NCBI GenBank assembly: GCA_051294905.1
Contig: CM119372.1
Location: 39,992,001-40,056,000 of the forward strand
Direction: 5' to 3'
Origin: Botryllus schlosseri
Taxonomy: Eukaryota
DNA length: 64,000 nucleotides
Positions within the stretch are counted from its first letter, which is position 1, and each line of letters starts with the position of its first letter. Below are positions 15,447 to 62,366 of the stretch, one piece after another. The notes below the pieces were generated by a model that saw only the letters and a list, made by a program, of their open reading frames with translations, searched no databases and was not told the DNA's origin. The position numbers were made by a program, and so were the translations under genes.

Positions 15447-18117
15447 CGTAGATCAACCGAACAACCTGACAAACGATTTTGATAGCAAAATTCGATTATT
15501 ATTGTTTAAAAAAATAAAGGGAAATAGAGTGACGCTTCTGGCATGAAAGCCATTTGCATCACAGCAACATAATGTTGTAATCAAAATGTTTAAAGTAGTC
15601 GAGTAGAAGTAGTTATTTTTCAAATTACGATATCGACTCGATATCATTTACGAACCGATCATAATCAGCTGGGCTCTAGTCTTACACATGGAAAATGGAC
15701 AAATTCGTACAGAAAACCAGGCTAGTTCGATTGTTCATTTGTTCAAGTATTCCTATTCAGGTTATGACGCATTTACGGCTTAGTAGGTGCGCGTGTAATA
15801 GTTCATTTCTCTTACGCAATCCGTGTATCACCTCGTACACCCGAATCACAAGTCTAAACAAGGCAACAAGCAGTGAACATGTGTCAAACACCGATCATCT
15901 AATCAGGCCACTGTGTCATTACGTACTAACAAATATTTCTGTTGCCAGTAGAGCGACTTTTGACGTATTTCGACCGAGCTTCACAGACGAGGCAAAACTG
16001 ACCACTACGGCTGGACAAAATCGAGAATTACTTGAATGATTCGATTGTGATTCGTGTATTAGGCCTCGAGACGAATATTCGAATATCACTCATTATGAAT
16101 TCACAACACTATGCAAAATGTTTAAATACGAGCCTTTTTATGTTACCATAAAGAATATAACGCCAGATTTACATCACATTAATGATTTTTGGTCTTTTTC
16201 CGACCGTGCCTATCTCATTGCACTTTGTGACAATGCTGTGGGTTTATCAAACCTTTGCATATTTGTTATATCCACTAACGTGCGTAGCTTTGTACTACAT
16301 GTTTCATATGCTGCGATATGACCAATCGAGGTTTAAAGGCTTCCACAGTGGAAAATACTATATCGAAACTATCATTCTCGTAGATAAAATAACTCTTAGA
16401 GGCAAGGAGCGTATCATTTGAGTTCTCGGAAAAATCCTCTCTCACGACTCGACTCGAATCATTAGAATTCATACTCGATTCAGATTCGAGTTCTTTAATC
16501 ATCGTGGTCAGCCCTGCTGACAACAATGATTCGCAATTTCGATAAAATAAACGATTCTCAGATGCATCGTATTGATTGGTACAGATATTCGAAAGACGCC
16601 ATGCTTTTATTGCGTGATATATTTACAAAACATGCTTCAGTAGCGATTCTTGTCCATGAAAACAATTTGACTTCAAGCCAGTCGCACATTGCTATCTTAC
16701 AACAAAATAGGAAAGGTGATATTTCTGCGAAGTCTCGATCAACCAGCAGCATTATCTGCCACAAAGTGTAATGAATCAGGTATGATCCAAAAAATACAAA
16801 AATATATTATCTGTGATGTAGAATTGGTATCATATTCTTCACGGTCGCATAAAAGGTACATACTTCATATTGTCATAAATCCATGATGAGCGATATTCGA
16901 CGCCTATAGTCCTTAATTCAGAATGGAACCACTCAGGTATTCGATTTCACCTAGCTCTATAAATCAGATAATTGTGTCTAACTGCTGCAAAAACCTGAAT
17001 ACCTCACTCATTAGGTTTGTAACATCACCAGCAAAGAATCTTGCAGGCCATGCATTTATGTTTTGGTTTGAATATTTACAAAATAGAACGAATGACATCA
17101 TCTGGCCTGTGTCACGGCAGCACGGTCTGTGACGCAACAGTGCCATTACTCGCGATTCGTCACCGTTAGTGCGCAGATGCTGAAGCGAAGTCACATCGTC
17201 CACAATAAGCAAGTGAGTTTAGTGGCGCTTTTAAATCAGGAATATGATTCACGATTGAATTGCATGAAACATGCTGTGGAACCAGACTTGGAAAACGAGA
17301 AAGTTCTCAGATTTTCCTAAATAGATTTGAACTAAAATTACTAAATTCGTCCAACTTGGAAATTTTGGTGCTAAAAAGTGTGGCGCCAAAAAGGTTAAGA
17401 TTATAGCTAGAGCGATATCGAATTTATGAGCCAATACCGACAAAACCGATAGTACCTAGTACCTTGACCGAAAATCCAGATATATTCAGTTGATATTCAC
17501 CAAATATGGTACCAAGCTTAAAGCGCATCTCCAAAAATTCTGACCATTGATTTGAACAGCTTTTCATCCAATTCTATGCTTGGACATGAAATAAACTAGA
17601 GAGGCTACATCTGAACACTTGTATGATACAAAAATAACTCATTATTTCCATTCCAGCATTCGCAGATTATAACTGTCTCAATCCTTACTACCATGTTGTG
17701 ACGTTACGAAAATTCCCGATATTTTTACGTCTAACAGCCGATACCGATATTTCTCTGGAAGTGTGGTATCGACTCAATATGATTAGAGTAACGATAATCA
17801 TAATCGGTCGGGACCTAGGTAAGAAACACAGATTTAGACCATGGGTATCGCTTTTATAAAAGGTCAAACCAGCAATTATAATTGAGTTAAAATACGAAAA
17901 ATGTCATTCAATGTTGATATGTAAGATATTTGTAAATAAAATAATCCGTCCACTAATCATCATCACGCACCTTGTTTTCTTAACTGGGGCTTCAAACGAA
18001 CCCCATGGATTCGTAGGAGGTGAAAACACGAGCCCGACTCAAACAGCAAAAGTTCTATTGATTACCGGTTAATATTCGTTACATTATTTTTTATTTGTGT
18101 GACATCATGTTATTGAT

Positions 18118-35553: not shown

Positions 35554-37772
35554 CAGTGGTTCCCAACGTGGGCGATATCGCCCCCAGTGGGCGATTTTGA
35601 GAAACAGGGGGAAATGCTTAGGGGGTGACAGGGGGGGTGCTGGGGGTGAAATGTTAGAACGTCCTATCACGGCCTAAAAATACACGGAAATACGGCTTGT
35701 TCTGCATATGACATGAAAGTTGACTAAAAAAAGGTCATAACTAGGGCGATGTTTTTTGACACTTTAAAATAAGTCAAAATTCTGTTAAAATTGTAGCGTT
35801 AGGTCAAAAAAAATTCAGAATTGTTTACGAAGTCGAAGATTTTCTGCCACCTGCATTTCGGTTGCATCGTAAATGTTTGCACTGTCGGTGAGCTTACCAT
35901 AAGGCATTTTACTGCTTTTAGCCTACTTTATCGGCCTACCGTTGTAGAAGACACATTATCTGCTCATTGTAAATCATAAACGGCAAAATGAAACAAATAG
36001 GTTGACATGGTGTTATGCTGAACGTGCCACAATATCCTAACTGAAGCAAAACTGCGTGGGCATTGGTTCTTATATCAGGAAGCGCATGATGAAAAATTGT
36101 GATGTAGACAAAATTTTCGGAATGAAGCAACACGCTGTGTCACCAGCAGTGTGCGCACAACTTCAGTATTACCAGCCAACAACAGTTGCTTTTGAAAGTT
36201 CTTTCTCCATTCTTGGCAAGCTACTTAGTTTTGACATAAACTTTCTAGGAAAGTGTCTTTCGTTGTAATACAACAAATCTTAATTATTTCTACCATAATG
36301 AGTGATGTAACTACTGGAATTATTCGTAGGTCCAGATTTTGTTAAAATAAAGTTTTTTTCATGAAAATATTTGTCAGTTACTTTGTCAAATATTTTTTTT
36401 CATGCTAAACTACTTCGTAAGGAAAGACAGTTCCAACCAGAAATCCAGATAAGTAGTAGGGGAGATGTGGTACCGATGAATCAAAAATTGGAAAATGATC
36501 GCTGGCCCCGAAATGTTCAGCCGAAAATAGCAGATTTTTTGCTGGCTCAGCACTTTGATACAAGCTCTACCTATCGCGCGCATATACATGAATATCGGTC
36601 TTTTCAAATAATATTTATGGACGTTTAAAATTTGTTGCTCGAACGTGTCATCGGTCCCCACCCGCTGGGTCCAATGGCACACGATCCGGGGACCTATGAC
36701 ACATATACCCTAAAAAAACTCAGATGTAATAACTTTTCTTGCTCAGTATTATAATCTAAGCTACAGCAAGCCAAAGAAGAATTTTCGGTCGCCACCGTCA
36801 AATAATAGATTAAATATTGACTCAAATGTTGTTATAAAATCACGTTTCGATTTAGGCTCGGACTTATAAATTTGAGGGTACATACATATTGCCCGAAAAT
36901 CGACAGTGTGACTTTCAAAGAACTCGTTATAGCGATAAAACATCATATGCAATTATTACATAAAGATTTTCTGTACGTAGTCATGTTTCATTTGTTTCAT
37001 GATTAGTATGCTTGTTTATTTTGCTTGATTTGGCTATTGTATCATCGGTCCCCACCCTACTAATTTTGTACATGAATCGTAAAAATTCCACTCAAGGAAA
37101 GTACTGGAAAAAATAATAGGTTCCATTATATAGCCTGATACAAGCCCTAGACTTCACAATAAAAATGATTGCTGGTTTGTTCGTGTTGAAGGTTACAAAG
37201 AAAAATGTATATGTCGATCTAAATTTACTTTACACCCCCCAAAACAAAAAACATCTGTGAAAGACCCCATAGTTCGCGCACGTCGATTTTTTTTTGTATG
37301 TGATGAAAGATGTTGCCAGCATGCAATTGTAGACAAGTTCAGGGAGTGTAATCATGGAATTATCATAGAGAATTTTCAATGTACTTTCGGTCCCAGTGAT
37401 CCATCGGTACCACATCTCCCCTATTCTAATATTATGTGGGAAAACACCTAATTTACATACACGAGGTCAAAATTTGGTCAAAATTAAGTTTTTTAAAGTA
37501 AAAAATGTCGAAATTGAAGTTTTTAGGTCAAAATCTTACATTTTTTAGGTAATAAAAATCGCCCTAGTCATAACTAAACGGAAAATGGACGCACAAACCG
37601 GTTTTTAGAGCACCTATTTGGAAAATGACTTTATTTATAGTCAATTCACCAGCGATCACAGTTAGATCCCGTATATATGACCTCTCTTTTAGATCCGTAA
37701 ATATCGGGGGGACGAAAATTTGTGTCGAGCTTGAGAAGGGGGCGATTATTTGAAAAAGATTGGAAGCCACTG
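35554..37772 (+). mobile_element. Non-autonomous hAT element (same termini as 43139-43507) with dimerisation-domain relic
   Basis: Starts CAGTGGTTCCCAACGTGGGCGATATCGCC, ends GATTGGAAGCCACTG; TSD TTCGAAAG / GTCTAAAG (6/8); QPTTVAFESSFSILGKLL in ORF 36056..36268. Confidence 0.8.
36457..37423. mobile_element. Pogo/Tc1-mariner-like MITE nested in 35554-37772
   Basis: 22-bp perfect TIR TAGGGGAGATGTGGTACCGATG / CATCGGTACCACATCTCCCCTA. Superfamily inferred from terminus style only. Confidence 0.8.
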
Positions 37773-46819: not shown

Positions 46820-47394
46820 GGCCAGATCTTTATTTGCATTAATGAATTCATGGAGCTTCATATTGTCGCTGATTATTTGGCCTAGCATTCTCCGTGAAAT
46901 TAATAAAACGAGTAAACTGCTACAAGGCAGCGGGGTATCGCTACAAAAGCAGTGACGGAGGTTGCAGCTACTGCAACCTTTTTGCGCCCATATCGCGAAA
47001 CAGGCTACGAAAATGTAGTATTGTCTGGTCGCGAGCTTTCTCGGGAGTTAAACATCGATGCAAACTTTCCACAATCGAGAACCAGCAGAAAACGCAAATT
47101 GTTCGGCTATGAAGCCGGAGATGAAACAGACGAAGTTTCATCCGTCGACAGGTTTAGAACCAATTTCTTTCTGGAGGTTGTTGATCAAGTTATTATGTCA
47201 ATCAGAGAACGCTTCCAGATGATGCGTGACGTCGCAGATACACTCGGCTTTCTCGTGACACGAGAAAATTTATTGCGAGAACACAGAAATAAAAGCATTC
47301 ACAAATGCTGCAAAATCTTCCAACAAAAGATCGGGGATGCATGTGAGATGGCATTGGAGTTGAAGAGATTTGTTTTAGTAATTGAGAAGGATAC

Positions 47395-47871
47395 TGTAGC
47401 GGTCGTTGCAACGACTTGTTGCAAGACACGCTGGTATAGTGCTTGATTGGAGTCGACGCTACAGCTTACAGTTCCCGTTGTACGCACTAGTCACTGACTA
47501 ATGACCGCTCTGAGTACACTTGCAATCCTGATCACACACGCAGATCCAAGGAGCTTTCTTTACTAGCACAGAACAGCCAAATAGTAGTAATAGTGGTCAG
47601 AAACTTGTAGATTTACCAGGTTCAAATCATACTGCAATATATTAACGAATATAGAAAGAACAAAGTTAGATGTATCTAATTGCCTGTATACGACTCTGTG
47701 ACTTAAGCGAGCACGCCCGCTACGGCGCTATACACTGGCGAAGTGGCGATCTCTCAAAGCACGTGCTTCGCAGACTATACTTTATCGATACGAGATTAAG
47801 GTCGTGGGAAATGAGGTTAGGAGAGGGTTGCACGGGAAGATTACTGGCACCCTGCTGGGACGGATCTTACA
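47395..47871 (-). repeat. 3' LTR of BEL/Pao element
   Basis: Direct repeat of 50231-50707; preceded on the minus strand by the PPT. Confidence 0.97.
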
Positions 47872-48114
47872 TTCCCCACTTTAAGGACATTTTTGTGCAA
47901 CACAAAATGTCTTTACAACTATTTTCGTAAACAATGTGGCTCCACGTCGGGGTAATCGGACTTTTACAAACATTACATCGAACACAAAGGGAGAAATAGA
48001 CCCTAACAGGCAACAGGTAACAAACACAAACAAATGCTAATCACATACATTATACAGCAATAAAATACAAAACAGACAAGGATAATCTCAGACCAAAGCA
48101 CCAATTATACAACA

Positions 48115-50189
48115 TCAATCACCCACAGTTTTATACTCGGACACTTCAATACAATTCGAAACAGCGGGAGCAGAGCACGGATGCAAGCTAGTTAAATGTA
48201 ACTTTCCACATTTCCTACAAACTACGCGTTTTGGACAATCTTTACCGTGGTGCATTCTAGTACATCTTTCCCCACATCCATAACATAAAAACTTGTCACG
48301 CATAAACGATATTCGTTCAGAAAACGGTAAATTCTCAAAATCCACACAATCTGGGATATGGTGGTCATATTTTCCACAAAACAGGCAATTATATTCGCCT
48401 GACATAACATTAGTACCAAATGAAACACATGGCCTATCACGGCCAAACTTTTGAGCAGATTGCGTGATATTACTATTTCGGTTTTCATCCAACATTCTGA
48501 ATTCTGGCATATTTCGACGTTCAGACTGATCTCTCACAAATGACACAAAATACTCAAATGGGGGTAGCAATTTACATCATTCATCTGTGCCTTGTACTTT
48601 GACACTTTACAACGCCACTTATCAATAAGTGACGGAGGTAACTTTTTCACAACGTAAACATGATTTGACGAGTAATCAAGAGTGCCTAACTCTGGCACAA
48701 ACCGTTTGTTCACAAAAACTTGCTCCAAGAAATCAGAGAATTCTTGCAGCCCAAGTCTATCATGTTCCTTTATATGACGCCAACCTTTCAATTTATCTAG
48801 GAAGGCCTGCCCAACAACGACTGGGCTTCCATACCTACTTCGCAAGTCACTTATTGCTTTTCGATAAGATTCCTCGGTACCATGCAAAAAATAACATTTT
48901 ACAACTTTCAACGGGCCCGGACCAAGATGTTGTTTCAACAAATTCATCTTTTCATGAACACAATACACTCTATCTTCCACTAACGCTTTAAACGAATTTT
49001 CCCATTCCATATAATTAGTTTCATCGCCATCGAAAACCCAAACCTTTATATCAGGTATTCGCGTCAACGGTTTCATGTTGTATTGACGATCAATTGGTAT
49101 ATCGATAGATTGATTTACGGGCATCTTTACATACGTGTTTCGACCGGTTGCTTCCGGTTCAACATGTGGGACATTGTTCATTTGCACGGGAGTTTCATCA
49201 ATAACTGGGCCGTAGGATACGGGTTCACTAGATTTCACATTACATTGCCTAACTTCAGGACACACATGTGGGTCACTAATAACGAAGTTTTGTACCTTTT
49301 CCTCCGAATTCAATACGGGAACCTTGCACCGAATATCTGCATAACTTGGCTCTTCACGTACGACATCTTCATCATCATCAAAACCAAAGAGGTTTTCGTT
49401 TTCCTCCCTTTCAATTTGCTCACAAGCCTTGATCTCGGCTCGTTTTTCAGCAATTTGACTCTTCAGAGCCAATTGCGACAACTTTTTCTTCATTTCAGCT
49501 TCTTGCTCTGAAAATTCCAGCTTCGCTTCCAGAGCGGCTGCTTCCCTTATTCTCGTATGACGTAGCTCTTTGTTGCTGGCGAGGCTGGTGCGACTGTGTT
49601 GTGTATGGCGACTCGATCTCGAGCCGGCTCCAGATCTCGCGCGGCTACATACGGATCCATTTTCGGATCGAAGCATCATGAAGTCCGCAACGGCTTGCCG
49701 CATTCTTTTAAAATCTATTTCAACCAACCTCAGACTGTTGGTGAAGTCTTTTGTTTCCGTACTTTCCGCGTGATTTGAAATAATTTCTTCAGTAATTTTC
49801 TTCATTTCGTTTCGATGGCTAACAACTCTTTTCATTTCTTCACGCACTTCCTCTTTATTTGCGCATAGCGCCATGGCAGTCTCAGTTTCGTCCAAATATC
49901 TTTCAACTTCGCCTTTTGTTTCATGGAACTGACGTTCAAGTTCAACCAATCTCTGATCGAATCCATGGAAAGTGCCGTCACTACTGGTTGGAACATCAGA
50001 ACCCACTGACTTGCTCTTCGCGGGGATCTGGTCCACAATTTCTTTCTTGACACTTCCACGTTCGTCTTCAACATTCTCTGGACTTGGGGGAACTGGGCAG
50101 TCAGCACTCTTTGACGTTGCCACAGTTTGACTTTGTACGGCTGAGCAGTCAGCTATCTCTGACGTTGCTGCAGCTTCCATTATTTTCAA
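48115..50189 (-). CDS. gag: BEL/Pao Gag (coiled coil, DUF1759-like capsid region, three Cys/His knuckles), with one frameshift at 48560-48564
   Basis: ORF 48534..50189 (FDGDETNYMEWENSF...LRSRYGSP...LQEFSDFL...KLP) plus ORF 48115..48570 (CLFCGKYDHHIPDC, CYGC...HHGKDC, CRKCGKLHLTSLH), the BEL-type triple knuckle. Confidence 0.9.
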
Positions 50190-50230
50190 CTTTTCCGACT
50201 TTCAACTTTATGACTGGTAAAGTTTCTGAC

Positions 50231-50707
50231 TGTAGCGGTCGTTGCAACGACTTGTTGCAAGACACGCTGGTATAGTGCTTGATTGGAGTCGACGCTACAG
50301 CTTACAGTTCCCGTTGTACGCACTAGTCACTGACTAATGACCGCTCTGAGTACACTTGCAATCCTGATCACACACGCAGATCCAAGGAGCTTTCTTTACT
50401 AGCACAGAACAGCCAAATAGTAGTAATAGTGGTCAGAAACTTGTAGATTTACCAGGTTCAAATCATACTGCAATATATTAACGAATATAGAAAGAACAAA
50501 GTTAGATGTATCTAATTGCCTGTATACGACTCTGTGACTTAAGCGAGCACGCCCGCTACGGCGCTATACACTGGCGAAGTGGCGATCTCTCAAAGCACGT
50601 GCTTCGCAGACTATACTTTATCGATACGAGATTAAGGTCGTGGGAAATGAGGTTAGGAGAGGGTTGCACGGGAAGATTACTGGCACCCTGCTGGGACGGA
50701 TCTTACA
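50231..50707 (-). repeat. 5' LTR of BEL/Pao element
   Basis: Direct repeat of 47395-47871; minus-strand TATA-like TAATATAT (50480-50473) and AGTAAA (50400-50395). Confidence 0.97.
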
Positions 50708-51320
50708 GATACCAGTCTAAAATCCACAGAGGATTTTCTCAATTACTGCCTGTCCCCAAGAATGTTCGAGGTTTATCAGAATTTATTCATCGCTTTTCGA
50801 ATTGTGTTGACGTGTCCTGCTACCGTTGCCAGTGCCGAACGCAGCTTCCGTAAACTGAAGCTTATAAAAACGTACAGCCGTACTAGTATGTCCGACAACA
50901 GATTGTCCTCGCTCACTATGTTGTCTATCGAAAATGCTCGTAAAAAGAGTGTTGATTACGAAGACGTCATCAAAGCCTTTGCCACTAGTAAGGTTCGTTC
51001 CGAACGCTTTCGATAACACATTTGCTCTTATTTTCAGTGTTATTGTTTTTTTGCATGTTTTGTCACCAAGAATCGTACGTTAGTATGCGTCGTACTTGTA
51101 TACAAACAACGATTATGTACTCTTTTCGTTTCTTTCGAAACCCCATGGTTACCGACATGAAATATGCTTCAGCGTGTACAGCGAGTATAATTGGCTAGTA
51201 TGCAAACGGGAGTAGGGAGGGGGTCTGGCGGGCGAAGCCCCCCAGAAGTTGGATTGACAATCCTGTGGGAGGCCCGAATCCAAAATTTTGGGGGGCTGAC
51301 GAAGTGCTGTTACGGTCCTG

Positions 51321-51696: not shown

Positions 51697-54323
51697 CAGT
51701 AGTGGCTCGTCCTATAGGGCAACTGGGGCATTGCCCCACCTAATATTCTGTTCAGTAACAATTCTTTACCATTTATAGACGCACACCAATCTATATATAC
51801 CGAAATCACAGCGAAAATCGTATTCTTCTTGTCGTTTCGTTTGTTAATGCCCATATATAGCGAAGTCTGTGCGAAAATCGAATTCTCTTCCGCGTTTTCG
51901 CTTTGCGAATGCCTAGCCGGGGCATGCCCCGGTAGCGCTCATAACAAGCTTTCACTGTCTATTCTCTCAAAGCCGCGCACAATGAAGAAACGGTGATTTA
52001 CTCTCTCCTATTCGTAAAATGGCCGAGCAAGCGGGGCAAATATGCCTGGTCGCCCCTGAGGTGTGATGTAACAATCGTATCTATATCTGAACTCGATTAC
52101 CGTAATACGCGTTTAGTCGACCTTTGCTGGTATAGGTCGATTTTAATGGTGTTTCACACCATGAAAACTCTTGAAACTTGGTATGTCATGTCGTGATGGT
52201 GGTATTTAACACTGCCCCAAGTTACAGGGTTTCTACTTAAAGTTTAGGGTAGTAATTCCGTTTCCGAAGTTGAGTGTGTGCTGATCCGTCATGTATCGCT
52301 AACAGATTTTACTCAAAAGCCGGTATTGGTATCCATTGATTTTGACGATGTTCAATACTGAGATCGGTTATGAAATTTGGCACGGTAAGTCTTAATGTTA
52401 ATATCAAACGCTGTACCAAGCTTTAAGTTTGTCACTGAACTGTGTTAGTGGTAATTTCTTTTCCTAATTCGAGTGAGAGCTGACTCGTTATTTATCGCTA
52501 ACAGATTAAAAGCAAAGCCAGTCTTGGTATCTATTGATTTTAACGATGCTCCTTACCTAGATCCGTCATAAGATTTTGCATGGTATGTCTTGGTTTTAGT
52601 ATCGAACGCTGTGCCAAGTCTCAAGGTTGATACTCAGTGATTAGGGCAGTAATTTCGTTATCAAGGTCGAGTATGGTAGAGATGTGCTCAGATCTGACAC
52701 TTTAGCATATAACGCATTGCGGATTTCACGCAAAAGCCGGTGTATCTGCGGTAAAGTTAACTGAGATGATGATATCATTCTCAGTTTGCATTCAAATATT
52801 TACTTTGATATTATATTCTCCAATGTTAATTTCACCGTGAAATTGTGGCCTTCAAGCCATTTGCTCACAACCCCCTGCTGTCAAGCGAGATAGCTATTTC
52901 GTTTTCAAGGGCAGCTAACAGCTGATCACTTGATCAGCCTATTCCTCAGTAAATTTTACGCAAAGTTTGGTGCTGGTCTGTTCGCATTAATTTTGACAGT
53001 GTACCATACCGAAAAAGGGCATGAGACCACTTCTCGATGATGTCATGTAACAGTGTAATAAGTTTAAAGCTTTCATTCACGTATTTATTCGGTAATATAT
53101 TTTCCAAAGGCGATTTCGCAACAGACCTATAGACAGTAATAAAGCCGTATGTGTCGTGTTACAGTCTCCAGTTTGAAGGCCAAAATCTCCTATGCTGTAC
53201 CGAGACCGAATTTCCGAGGCTACTATTCTTAGTTCTTCAGAATGATGTTTTGGATTCAATATGACAGGCCCAATCTATGAGATAACAATTGCGTATCTGT
53301 CCGAACTCGTTGACCTTTCCACTTAGGCTTACGCTATCTCTAGTCTCGAGTTATAGTCATTTCCAGGTCTAGTGCGAACATGAATCGTGTTGAATCTTTG
53401 TTCCGTACGCCGTTTACGCAGTTACCACACTTCAAGTCACAGCTCACCGGCGGACCTCTCGTGGCACATACGTTAAAATCACAGTTGCCGGCAAATTCAT
53501 GTTACCGTACCATCATGAAGTTACTGGGCCATTCCATACACAGACAACCGATGTTCACATCACTACCTCTTCAAATCTCCTGAAATTTGGTACACACACA
53601 GAGGAGCCAATTTGATACAGGATGAACTTTATTTTATGAAAATTGGACTTCGGGGTCAAAAGTTACGCCACTTTGAAAATTGACAATTTTCTGCTCATTT
53701 CAGGTCTGCACATCTCGGTTTTTTTTTAATGAAATATTCAAGAAGGTGTAGCTAGATGATGGACGACAGTTGAGATACCGCACTTGGATTTATTTGAAGC
53801 TTGTCTGATCGTCCACATTTCCAAGTGAAATTTGATGCCCTGTAGGTTAGGGCCAAAGGTTAAATTGAGGGGGAAATCTAAAATCAGTCAGGCGTTACAC
53901 GATTTAGACTGCGGATTGCTCAAAAACATATTAATATATTTTGGAAAAAACGATCTTAAATGAAAGTTTGCTTCAAGGAGAATTCGTTCATAGCTGTTTG
54001 ATTTTGGTTTTTAGACTGTAAAGTGATGAAATTGCAGTTTCAAGAGCACACTTCATTTGTACATGGAAATACAGTACTAGTAGGGCGTGTTCGGACATCG
54101 AGTCCGGGGTGTGTGCGGACATCATGTCTGGGGTGTGTTCGGACTGTGTTGCCATTCGAACACCATGTCTGAGATGAGCTCGGACTGTTTTGCCCCTCGG
54201 ACATCGTGTCTGGGGTGTGTTCGGGACATCATGTCTTGGGTGCGTTTGGACAGTTTTGCAACTAGGACTTCGAGCCTAGGGTGTGTTCGTAACGTGTTGC
54301 CATATTGTCACGAGCTGCCACTG
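51697..54323. mobile_element. Non-autonomous hAT-like element inserted at the end of the Gypsy integrase
   Basis: TIR CAGTAGTGGCTCGT / ACGAGCTGCCACTG; TSD CGAACAAC / CGAACAAG (7/8). Contains ~200-bp degenerate tandem units (~52290-53000) and a GTGTTCGGACATC minisatellite (54085-54300). Confidence 0.8.
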
Positions 54324-54625: not shown

Positions 54626-55280
54626 ATGGCTTAACACTTTGATACAAGCTCTACTTACCGCGGCTGCATACATTAATATCCACATTTCAAAAAATATTTA
54701 TGAACCCTTAAAAATTTGTGCTGGAACTTATCATCGGTCCCCACCCGGTTGGTCGAAGGGCACACGACATGGGGACCTATGAGACGGACGCTCCAAGTCA
54801 AATGTTCCAAGTTTTCTTGCTGCTTAATAATTCTAATATATAAGCTACCGCGATAAAACACCACAGGTCGTTATTACAGACAGCACATATCTGTATGTAA
54901 GCGTGTTTCTGTTGTTGCATGATTAGTTGGTCCAACTATTTTGCTTGATTTGGCTTAGATATCATCGGCCTCCATTATATAAATTTTGTAATTGAATTGA
55001 AAAAATTCCTATCAAGGATGGTGTTGAACAAAATAATATGTGTCTTCATATAGCCTGACAAATTTATGCGTCGTTCGGAATTTATTTTACACCCTCCAAA
55101 ACAGAAAACATCCGTCACAGACCCACTAACTCGCGCATGTCGAAGTAATTTGCATGTTAGCAGTGATTCCGCCAGCATGCAATTGTAGACAAATTCATGG
55201 AGTGTAATCATGGGTTTATTATGGATCATTTTTCAAGTATTTTCGGTGCCATTGTCTCATCCGTCCCACATCTCCCCTAC
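54626..55280. mobile_element. Second, left-truncated copy of the 36457-37423 MITE; host of the Gypsy insertion
   Basis: Shares CACTTTGATACAAGCTCTAC, TCATCGGTCCCCACCCG, GCCAGCATGCAATTGTAGACAA and the right end CCACATCTCCCCTA. Confidence 0.8.
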
Positions 55281-58407: not shown

Positions 58408-59560
58408 CACCAGGTTTGGTTCAATTTGTTTGAAATAAGGTCAGATTTGTTTGAAATGAGGTCAGTCTCATGCTTGAAATGAGGATAGTCATGTGAGAAA
58501 TAAGGATAGTCATGTTTGAAATAAGGATAGTCGCTATATTCACTATGAGGTCAGTTGCAGTACCAGGCGCGATTTACCAGTGGTAACCCAGTCCGAACAC
58601 ATCCCAGACATGATGTCCGAACACGCCCCAGACACCATGTCTGAATGACAACGCAGAACAAACACATCTCAGACACCATGTCCTAATGGCAGCACATGCC
58701 GAACACACCTCAGACATGATGTCCCAACTCGCCGCGTGTTCAGACATCATGTTTGGTGCTTGTTCGGACATGGTGTTTTGGTCGTGTTCGGCCTGTGTTG
58801 ACACTAGGACATCGTGTCTGGCGCGTGTTCGCACATCATGTTTGGTGCTTGTTCGGACATGGCGTCTTGGCCGTGTTCGGCCTGTGTTGACACTAGGACA
58901 TCGTGTCTGGAGCGTGTTCGCACATCATGTTTGGTGCTTGTTCGGACATGGTGTTTTGGTCGTGTTCGGCCTGTGTTGATACTCGGACATCGTGTCTGGC
59001 ACGTGTTCGGACATCATGTCTTGCGCGTGTTCTGACATGGTGTCTCGGTCGTGTTCGGCCTGTGTTGACACTCGGACATCGTGTCTGAGGTGTGTTCGGC
59101 ATGTGCTACCATTAGGACATGATGTCTTGGGTGTGTTCGGCCTGTGTTGATACCTGGACATCGTGTCGGGGGCGTGTTCGGACATCATGTCTGGGGTGTG
59201 TTAGGACTGTGTTGACACTAGGACATCATGTCTTGGGCGTGTTCGGACATCATGTCTGAGGTGTGTTCGGCATGTGCTGCCATTAGGACATGGTGTCTTA
59301 GATGTGTTTGGCCTGTGTTGTCATTCAGACATGGTGTCTGGGTCGTGTTCGGATATCATGTCTGGGATGTGTTCGGACTGGGTTACTACTGGGAAATCGT
59401 GCCTGGTTCTGCAACTGACCTTATAGAGAATATAGCGACTATCCTTATTTCAAACATTACTATCCTTATTTCTAACATGACTATCCTCATTTCAAACATG
59501 AGACTGACCTCATTTTAAACAAATCTGACCTTATTTCAAACAAATCGAACCAACCCTCCT
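58408..59560. mobile_element. Foldback element with ~320-bp TIRs and an internal 89-bp tandem array (MULE/Rehavkus-like)
   Basis: 58411-58730 is the reverse complement of ~59240-59557; TIRs contain 21-bp units (TTGAAATAAGGATAGTCATG-like); flanked by direct repeat (T)CGAATCGGT at 58398-58407 and 59560-59569. Confidence 0.85.
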
Positions 59561-61640: not shown

Positions 61641-62366
61641 CAGACTTGCATAAACTATCAACCTCGTTAGTTGATGGTCAACTAAATACTGATTTTTTGA
61701 GTAGTTACAGTTGCGGATTTTGAATAGTGAGTAATTCTAGTTCTAGTTCTAGTTGCGAGTTTTGAAAAGTGAGCAGTTCTAATTGTAGGTTTACTAGTTA
61801 GTCTTAAAAAGTGAGTAGTTCTAGGTCTAGTTCCAGTTGCGAGTTTTCAGAAGTGAGTAATTCCAGTTCTAGTTCTAGTTGCGAGTTTTGAAAAGTGAGC
61901 AGTTCTAGTTCTAGATCTAGTTGCGAGTTTTGAAAAGCGAGTAGTTCTAGTTCTGGGTCCAGTAGCGAGTTTTGAAAAGTGAGTGGTTCTAGTTCTATTT
62001 CTAGTTCTAGTTGCGAGTTTTGAAAAGTGAGTAGTTCTAGCTTTAGGTTTATTTTTTGTGGTATTCATGGAGTTTGTCGACATGGTCATCTACACCAGGC
62101 CAATATTCTTTATTTTTATTCCGTATCTGCCGACTTGTAGCACACAGCCCACTTCTAGGCTTTTTTTTAAGACGCCGCTTGCACGGATGAGATGGTGAGG
62201 GCGAGCCTAGATAAATCTCCAATACTTAGGTATAGGAATTCAGGAATCGACCTCGGTCGCACTCGAACTCGCAACCCATTGGTGTTGCAGCAGTGGATTA
62301 CACCTCAATTTCTAGGTTCTAGTTCTAGTTGAGCATCTTGGAAATGCAGTAGTTTGTAGAAGTCTG
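61641..62366. mobile_element. CAGACTTG MITE with TTCTAG/GCGAGTTTTGAAAAGTGAG tandem array and a SINE insertion (family also ~2860-3055, 13700-13990, 14790-15340, 30720-31840)
   Basis: Starts CAGACTTGCATAAACTA, ends TAGTTTGTAGAAGTCTG; ~35-40-bp tandem units at 61700-62040. Confidence 0.7.

Follow-up and report, generated by a model that had tools for sequence, protein, structure and literature searches.

An LTR retrotransposon on the minus strand of a 64-kb stretch of Botryllus schlosseri DNA (assembly GCA_051294905.1, contig CM119372.1, positions 39,992,001-40,056,000; hereafter the window) is a young, non-autonomous, gag-only member of BEL/Pao that, with high probability, primes its minus strand with its own RNA and not with a host tRNA. 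Judged from sequence comparison, the BEL/Pao group to which it belongs probably primes DNA copying with its own RNA in a Tf1-like manner. To our knowledge, self-priming has been shown for fission-yeast Tf1 only and has been predicted for some Ty3/gypsy and copia lineages. If BEL/Pao elements self-prime, the mechanism would occur in all three great groups of LTR retrotransposons, and annotation tools that seek tRNA sites would miss, or set wrong bounds for, many animal elements. The primers of several sister families are split by an intron; such primers constitute sequence-level evidence that processed RNA is the partner of the primer site, and they would link splicing to the start of reverse transcription.

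A gag-only BEL/Pao element and the complement of its primer site

The element occupies positions 50707-47395 and is 3313 bp long in total (Table 1). Its 5' and 3' LTRs are 100% identical over 477 bp, and the GTATC target duplication fixes their boundaries. Structurally it has what is expected of BEL/Pao, namely TG..CA LTRs, a short target duplication and a polypurine tract, and its Gag matches Pfam PF03564 (DUF1759; E 9.2e-8, 32.7 bits against a cut-off of 25.4). No reverse transcriptase, Peptidase_A17, integrase or DUF5641 was found within the 3313 bp. Because this copy lacks pol, yet its relatives have Pol, we regard it as a non-autonomous derivative of a BEL/Pao family. The initial annotation, made from the letters of the sequence, had called it a BEL/Pao retrotransposon; the family assignment stands, but the copy is gag-only and not a full element. 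Despite the identical LTRs, gag in the window copy (48115-50201, minus strand) is broken into frames of 555 and 153 aa; in sister copies Gag is a single open frame of ~700 aa.

At least 42 matches to the LTR were found in the 495-Mb assembly, many of them paired and 2.8-2.9 kb apart, and the window element is therefore part of a multiplied gag-only family. Its Gag is 66-87% identical to the Gag parts of BEL/Pao polyproteins of 1821-2063 aa encoded elsewhere in the genome, in frames that also carry Peptidase_A17 hits. These autonomous relatives, characterised as a set by pattern and protein searches without locus assignment, have LTRs with the same 25-nt context around the proposed primer core and leaders in which the primer site is unchanged and lies equally far from gag; Pol for the window family probably comes from these relatives.

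The window also contains tandem repeat arrays at 58734-59404 (periods of ~89, 41 and 65 nt) and 61702-62048 (42 nt), with a 139-nt relative of the former at 54086-54224. Dispersed repeats that are 72-82% identical lie at 36602-37423 and 54685-55279, and also at 16179, 33841 and 55777; they are probably remnants of other transposons.

Table 1. Features of the window element (window positions), primer sites with their LTR complements in seven BEL/Pao families, and metagenome LTR introns that split the complement
Feature	Position or element	Strand	Sequence	Remarks
Target-site duplication	50708..50712; partner 47390-47394	-	GTATC	5 bp; read from sequence
5' LTR	50231..50707	-	TG..CA	477 bp
TATA-like motif	50473..50480	-	TAATATAT	assigned from sequence only; first base 38 nt upstream of the 11-mer
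Second helix, upstream arm	50450..50455	-	CTGGTA	7 nt upstream of core; pairs with TACCAG
Proposed self-primer core	50432..50442; second copy 47596-47606 in 3' LTR	-	AAGTTTCTGAC	exact complement of 50220-50230
Poly(A) signal	50395..50400	-	AGTAAA	starts 32 nt past the end of the 11-mer, 19 nt upstream of the poly(A) addition site
Poly(A) addition site, R/U5 border	50381	-		untemplated A-runs and depth fall, run X22
Primer-binding site	50220..50230	-	GTCAGAAACTT	begins at first base past LTR; no TGG
Second helix, downstream arm	50214..50219	-	TACCAG	directly past primer site
gag reading frame	48534..50180	-		ATG at 50180; DUF1759 domain
Zinc-knuckle part of gag	48115..48576	-		different frame in window copy; from translation
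Polypurine tract	47872..47882	-	AAAGTGGGGAA	adjoins 3' LTR
3' LTR	47395..47871	-	TG..CA	477 bp; polypurine tract directly upstream, GTATC directly downstream
Family F0	window		site GTCAGAAACTT; LTR complement AAGTTTCTGAC	offset 0
Family F1	L061, L063		site GTAGATACAG; LTR complement CTGTATCTAC	offset 0
Family F1, variant	L062, L067, L069		site GTAAATACAG; LTR complement CTGTATTTAC	offset 0
Family F2	L071		site GTTTTTTGACG; LTR complement CGTCAAAAAAC	offset 4
Family F3	L065		site GTTTTAAAATA; LTR complement TATTTTAAAAC	offset 0
Family F4	L066		site GTTAAAAATTACG; LTR complement CGTAATTTTTAAC	offset 3
Family F5	L077		site ATTTACAACG; LTR complement CGTTGTAAAT	offset 0
Family F6	L079		site TTTAAATACGA; LTR complement TCGTATTTAAA	offset 2
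LTR intron, 186 nt	metagenome		exon 1 end AGAG; exon 2 start TTTTTAC	spliced complement 11 nt (unspliced 9 nt)
LTR intron, 536 nt	metagenome, L099		exon 1 end CGATGT; exon 2 start TTTAC	spliced complement 11 nt; L099 3' LTR precisely intron-less
LTR intron, 201 nt	metagenome		exon 1 end AAAAGAG; exon 2 start TTCTTAC	spliced complement 14 nt (unspliced 9 nt)
LTR intron, ~388 nt	metagenome, L156		exon 1 end AGATAT; exon 2 start TTTAC	spliced complement 11 nt

The 5' LTR terminates with ...GCTACA at 50231 and is followed directly by GTCAGAAACTT (50230-50220). The initial annotation had pointed to this sequence, which does not begin with the TGG of a tRNA site, and to its exact complement inside the LTR (50442-50432). 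All of these coordinates hold, and the match, 11 bp at offset 0, stops exactly at the LTR boundary as had been claimed. A further pairing that it described, between CTGGTA in the LTR (50455-50450) and TACCAG just past the primer site (50219-50214), is likewise present. The 11-mer has only three matches in the 64-kb window, against 0.06 expected from shuffles, and none of 100 shuffles reached three. When the LTR was shuffled 2000 times, no shuffle gave a complement of at least 11 nt, with offsets of 0-4 permitted.

Both partners are highly conserved within the family. Genome-wide, the 11-nt primer site was exact in 39 of 40 LTR-end junctions, and the TACCAG arm was intact in 38 of 40. Among 30 LTR copies with overall identities of 88-100%, 29 have an unchanged core, and a genome search allowing up to two mismatches located its 25-nt context at 219 sites. 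Core and primer site are also unchanged in the autonomous relatives, whose Gag is just 66-87% identical. Because the two sequences are invariant, there is no covariation to be read inside the window family, and we observed none there.

Recurrence in other families and LTR introns that split the complement

For a survey of other BEL/Pao families in the genome, elements were chosen by frame length from at least 150 Peptidase_A17 hits, before any primer site had been seen. Both LTR ends were obtained for 16 further elements; together with the window copy, these represent 17 elements in seven families. Pfam searches indicated that four of the other full elements have the complete BEL/Pao domain set (polyproteins with DUF1759, Peptidase_A17 and DUF5641). 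A complement of 10-13 nt to the element's own LTR was present in all seven families (17 elements), with different letters in each. In every family, the complementary stretch starts 0-4 nt past the LTR and its partner lies 114-231 nt before the LTR end. By contrast, the longest complement among 42 cross-family pairings was 8 nt, with a mean of 5.7. The numbers of shuffles attaining the observed length were 0, 4, 2, 7, 0, 6 and 3 of 2000 for the seven families. A published criterion predicts self-priming where 10 bp or more of the 5' LTR can pair with sequence starting 0-5 bp past the LTR (PMC6317226, in the part of that paper available to us); the window element (11 bp, offset 0) and all seven families show this signature.

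The other families also supplied the covariation that the window family lacks. The F1 family shows one compensatory change, two copies having GTAGATACAG with CTGTATCTAC and three having GTAAATACAG with CTGTATTTAC. It also has a comparable second helix, ACCGGAC with GTCCGGT; this helix lies 7-9 nt upstream of the core in F0 and F1. The initial annotation had proposed looking for covariation between primer site and LTR in related BEL families, and the complementarity indeed recurs, with different letters and compensatory changes, in seven out of seven. It is found in most relatives from metagenome contigs as well. Taking genome and metagenome together, 11 of the 12 families with determinable LTR ends have a match to their own LTR.

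That the complementarity arose by chance is therefore practically inconceivable. Short matches do occur, and cross-family pairings reach 8-9 nt, but none of 2000 shuffles reached the match in the window element, and the recurrence of the pattern across the 12-family survey refutes this reading.

A second alternative is that a host tRNA, a tRNA half or another host small RNA primes and that the LTR match is incidental. There is precedent within the superfamily: the ICTV Belpaoviridae profile gives, in the portion available, an 18-nt site complementary to tRNA-Arg or tRNA-Gly (PMC8742986), and the BEL/Pao element Achilles is described, again in part of the source, with a tRNA-Tyr site (PMC4580426). 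The sequences analysed here make such priming highly improbable. We count at least ten different A/T-rich primer sites, none starting with TGG and each matching its own LTR; TGG was found at offsets 0-5 past the LTR in no family, and the first 20 nt past the LTR contained no alternative tRNA-type site in the families examined. The 17-nt primer-site sequence of the window family has 37 exact occurrences in the genome, each at an element's own LTR junction. Elsewhere in the genome it gave only three single places with one mismatch, against eight matches for a control read backward. The confinement of the exact 17-mer to its own element junctions stands in, partly, for a comparison with the tRNA set. 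Rfam found nothing tRNA-like in the element, its single hit being a sub-threshold miRNA match that we regard as chance, and no tRNA gene was predicted by ARAGORN, either in the window or at the other loci examined.

In one family, F2, the complement is interrupted in most copies. Six of seven sampled copies (L064, L073, L075, L081, L083 and L085) contain a 68-nt insert in the LTR, with GTAAGT...TTTCAG ends, that divides CGTCAA from AAAAC. In the F2 element L071/L072 (G000:C3:1103040-1111540), exactly this 68-nt insert is missing from both LTRs, and the insert-less LTR reads CGTCAAAAAAC, the exact complement of the element's own primer site. Genome-wide, the unspliced F2 junction occurs at 40 places and the spliced junction at two, which are the two LTRs of L071/L072.

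Split complements were also present in metagenome contigs, which can be chimeric. Scanning these contigs by alignment of the RT/Peptidase_A17 region yielded 80 loci with 42-58% identity, and comparison of 5' and 3' copies fixed the LTR ends in five families. In four of the five, a GT..AG intron within the LTR interrupts the complement of the primer site (Table 1); no complement was found in the metagenome family L090/L087, whose LTR end is atypical. L156, an old copy, has GG instead of AG at the acceptor in both LTRs. Further candidate sites were located by the motif ACA|GTAA alone, which gave 12 metagenome loci; nine of these have a split complement of at least 11 nt, adding the exon-junction variants TGATAT/TTTAC, CGATAT/TTTAC and TGAAG/TATTAC; no complement was found in L106 and L140, and the 5' LTR of L099 is truncated. 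In L099, the intron is precisely absent from the 3' LTR, but its 3' part survives in the 5' LTR. The two LTRs are only 88% identical, and this locus may be a chimeric assembly or a recombinant. At the metagenome loci L102/L104/L107/L108, L123, L124, L099/L105, L120/L121, L156, L117, L161 and L157, the LTR introns measure 107-536 nt.

In F2 and seven metagenome sequence variants, the complement is contiguous (11-14 nt) across the exon junction only, and none of the control cross pairings of split complements reached 11 nt (0/132 and 0/112). The exon-1 ends TGATAT, CGATAT and AGATAT pair with primer-site ends ..ATATCA, ..ATATCG and ..ATATCT, respectively, so that the final primer-site base (A, G or T) changes in step with the sixth base from the end of exon 1 (T, C or A), with introns of 263-390 nt in between. 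Since the primer site matches the spliced sequence, its pairing partner, or its template, is RNA. This match is consistent with a primer whose sequence is returned to DNA in every cycle.

These results also bear on whether the pairing between R and the sequence past U5 is a long-range RNA structure with a role in packaging, dimerisation or the control of translation or splicing, with an unrecognised primer lying elsewhere. Helices between U5 and the leader are known in retroviral leaders, and a second helix flanks the core in F0 and F1. Against this, the complement starts 0-4 nt past the LTR in every family, which is where the 3' end of a primer must sit, and no alternative tRNA-type site is present in the first 20 nt. 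In addition, across the introns, each base change at the end of exon 1 has its counterpart in the matching half of the primer site. This agreement is automatic if the site is copied from the primer; otherwise, constant selection would be needed. We thus consider a purely structural role unlikely and favour self-priming.

Transcript ends, RNA folding and the proposed priming mechanism

Raw reads from three RNA runs, together with one contig set, were aligned to the window element. In the single-cell run X22, 13 reads continue past 50381 with an untemplated A-run (on the element strand; a T-run as read), and sense-strand depth falls from 59.5 to 6.7 across this position. These reads mark 50381 as both the poly(A) site and the R/U5 border, with AGTAAA as the signal. 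The initial annotation had noted the TATA-like TAATATAT (50480-50473) and AGTAAA (50400-50395); both lie where it placed them, and the poly(A)-tailed reads ending at 50381 bear out the second as a poly(A) signal. Poly(A) signals downstream of the core were not found in F1 and F3-F6. In a second run, sense-strand depth was ~100 over U5, the primer site and the leader. Among aligned bulk RNA-seq reads, 91% run into unlike sequence and therefore derive from relatives.

No pile-up of read starts that would mark the start of transcription was seen among the reads aligned from the three RNA runs and the contig set. Candidate start positions are ~50445-50450 and ~50469. We rejected the drop in bulk RNA-seq depth upstream of ~50461-50469 as evidence for a start because most of these reads continue into the sequence of relatives. 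TATA and initiator motifs were dropped as start predictors since their positions are inconsistent among families. In addition, 43 reads in run X22 and 31 in run X23 join the LTR end (50229) to unrelated sequence, which suggests that some LTR copy is embedded in a different transcribed unit or is subject to read-through.

From the complementarity and its position we infer that, in vivo, AAGTTTCTGAC (50442-50432), in the 5' part of R, would fold back on the 11 nt directly past U5 (50230-50220), with the second helix of 6 bp helping to hold the fold-back. A cut 3' of the core, made perhaps by RNase H by analogy with Tf1, would leave a 3'-OH that reverse transcriptase could extend through the remaining 51 nt of R and through U5. 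The predicted strong-stop cDNA would be ~201 nt long (50431->50231) and joined to RNA ending in ...AAGUUUCUGAC. This strong-stop DNA would then move to the 3' R, and later plus-strand synthesis would copy the primer back into DNA, so that the primer site would be rewritten in each cycle and the two sequences would stay matched. Pol would be provided in trans by the autonomous relatives that have the same LTR core and primer site.

Because the core is present in both LTRs, the primer might instead be own-family RNA of the core copy in the 3' LTR, or a co-packaged second RNA acting in trans. We regard this as very unlikely. A cut in cis at the 3' copy would sever the R that is needed for strand transfer, and in sister families a primer spanning a splice junction requires transcription to begin upstream of the core. 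The 5' core copy ends 51 nt upstream of the R/U5 border, and a cut there would leave enough R for strand transfer. We take the copy in the 5' LTR as the probable primer.

RNA folding gave mixed support for the fold-back. In folds starting at the core, the helix between core and primer site had a mean pair probability of 0.79-0.99 in seven of eight cases. For the window element, the ensemble helix probability was 0.79, or 0.56 with 27 extra nucleotides at the 5' end, and its minimum-energy fold contained 0 of the 11 core/primer-site pairs. With the 27 extra nucleotides, the helix was missing from the minimum-energy fold in five of eight cases.

Several observations concern where the core lies in the RNA. 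Its 5' edge is initiator-like (pyrimidine-purine) in only one of the seven families. The second helix upstream and the non-initiator edge in most families argue that the core is not at the very 5' end of the RNA, unlike in Tf1, and the splice-junction cores of sister families require an exon upstream. Taken together, the second helix and the primers that span splice junctions in sister families suggest a primer segment inside the 5' leader. More specifically, and tentatively, the self-primer may be an internal piece of the 5' leader, assembled by splicing in several sister families, with the 5' end of the window RNA at 50469; we put this somewhat below an even chance. If so, the pairing partner of the primer site would not exist in those families until a GT..AG intron in R had been removed, only spliced RNA would start reverse transcription, and the primer site would be rewritten in each cycle from spliced RNA. 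Under the same reading, rare 38-nt inverted LTR copies would be fossils of plus-strand synthesis that copied the whole primer.

One such inverted copy occurs in a mini-element with its own target duplication, TATAG (L015; G000:C14:1457699-1458546). It consists of a full LTR ending in CA and then GTCAGAAACTT, followed in inverted orientation by the 27 LTR bases that precede the core (to 50469), and by ~22 other bases and a partial LTR. Junctions of this type number only three in the genome (L015, C10:22032404 and C8:13820822), and such a junction is present in 55 bulk-run reads and in 11 reads from one single-cell run. Two origins both fit L015: a snap-back of plus-strand DNA on the core, or the copying, during plus-strand strong-stop synthesis, of a primer extended by a 27-nt tail at its 5' end.

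Comparison with known self-priming and tRNA-primed elements

In Levin's papers on Tf1, the primer is reportedly the first 11 nt of the RNA, with RNase H making the cut. Tf1 of Schizosaccharomyces pombe, a Ty3/gypsy element, self-primes reverse transcription as established by experiment, and Tf2 and Tj1 (the latter from S. japonicus) are grouped with it (PMC4600332, in the part of the text available). The BEL/Pao elements described here resemble this group in having no tRNA site, in having ~11 nt past the 5' LTR that pair with their own LTR transcript, in a similar distance between the pairing partners and in extra helices around the primer duplex (as set out in the same part of PMC4600332). 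They differ in that their polyproteins carry DUF1759, Peptidase_A17 and DUF5641, which place them in another superfamily, BEL/Pao, and in that the primer spans an exon junction in sister families; moreover, the present case rests on sequence, that of Tf1 on experiment. The tRNA-independent self-priming that the initial annotation had suggested thus came through the comparative test, but the likeness to Tf1 is one of principle and not yet of detail.

Self-priming has been predicted by the same signature, at least 10 bp located 0-5 bp past the LTR, for the Tf1/sushi group of vertebrates and fungi and for the plant Tcn1 clade (PMC6317226, in part). Those are Ty3/gypsy chromoviruses, whereas the elements here are BEL/Pao: no Ty3/gypsy-type Pol or Gag was found in them, and their Pfam domains are those of BEL/Pao. 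The TAR lineage of Ty1/copia (Houba, Osr-1) is also predicted to self-prime, so the signature has arisen outside Ty3/gypsy; these are copia elements of plants, and the available part of the paper mentions no LTR intron (PMC6317226).

With canonical Belpaoviridae, the window element shares a DUF1759 Gag, TG..CA LTRs, a 5-bp target duplication, a polypurine tract and relatives with a Pao-type Pol. Canonical members are primed by host tRNA through the 18-nt tRNA-Arg or tRNA-Gly site (PMC8742986, in the portion available); here there is no such site, and the sequence in its place matches the element's own LTR. A survey of BEL/Pao elements (PMC3118150) contains no mention of PBS, tRNA or priming. 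Our literature search, which covered papers outside subscription, found no proposal that BEL/Pao elements self-prime and no account of a self-primer split by an LTR intron. On the best reading of these comparisons, Tf1-like self-priming is new for BEL/Pao.
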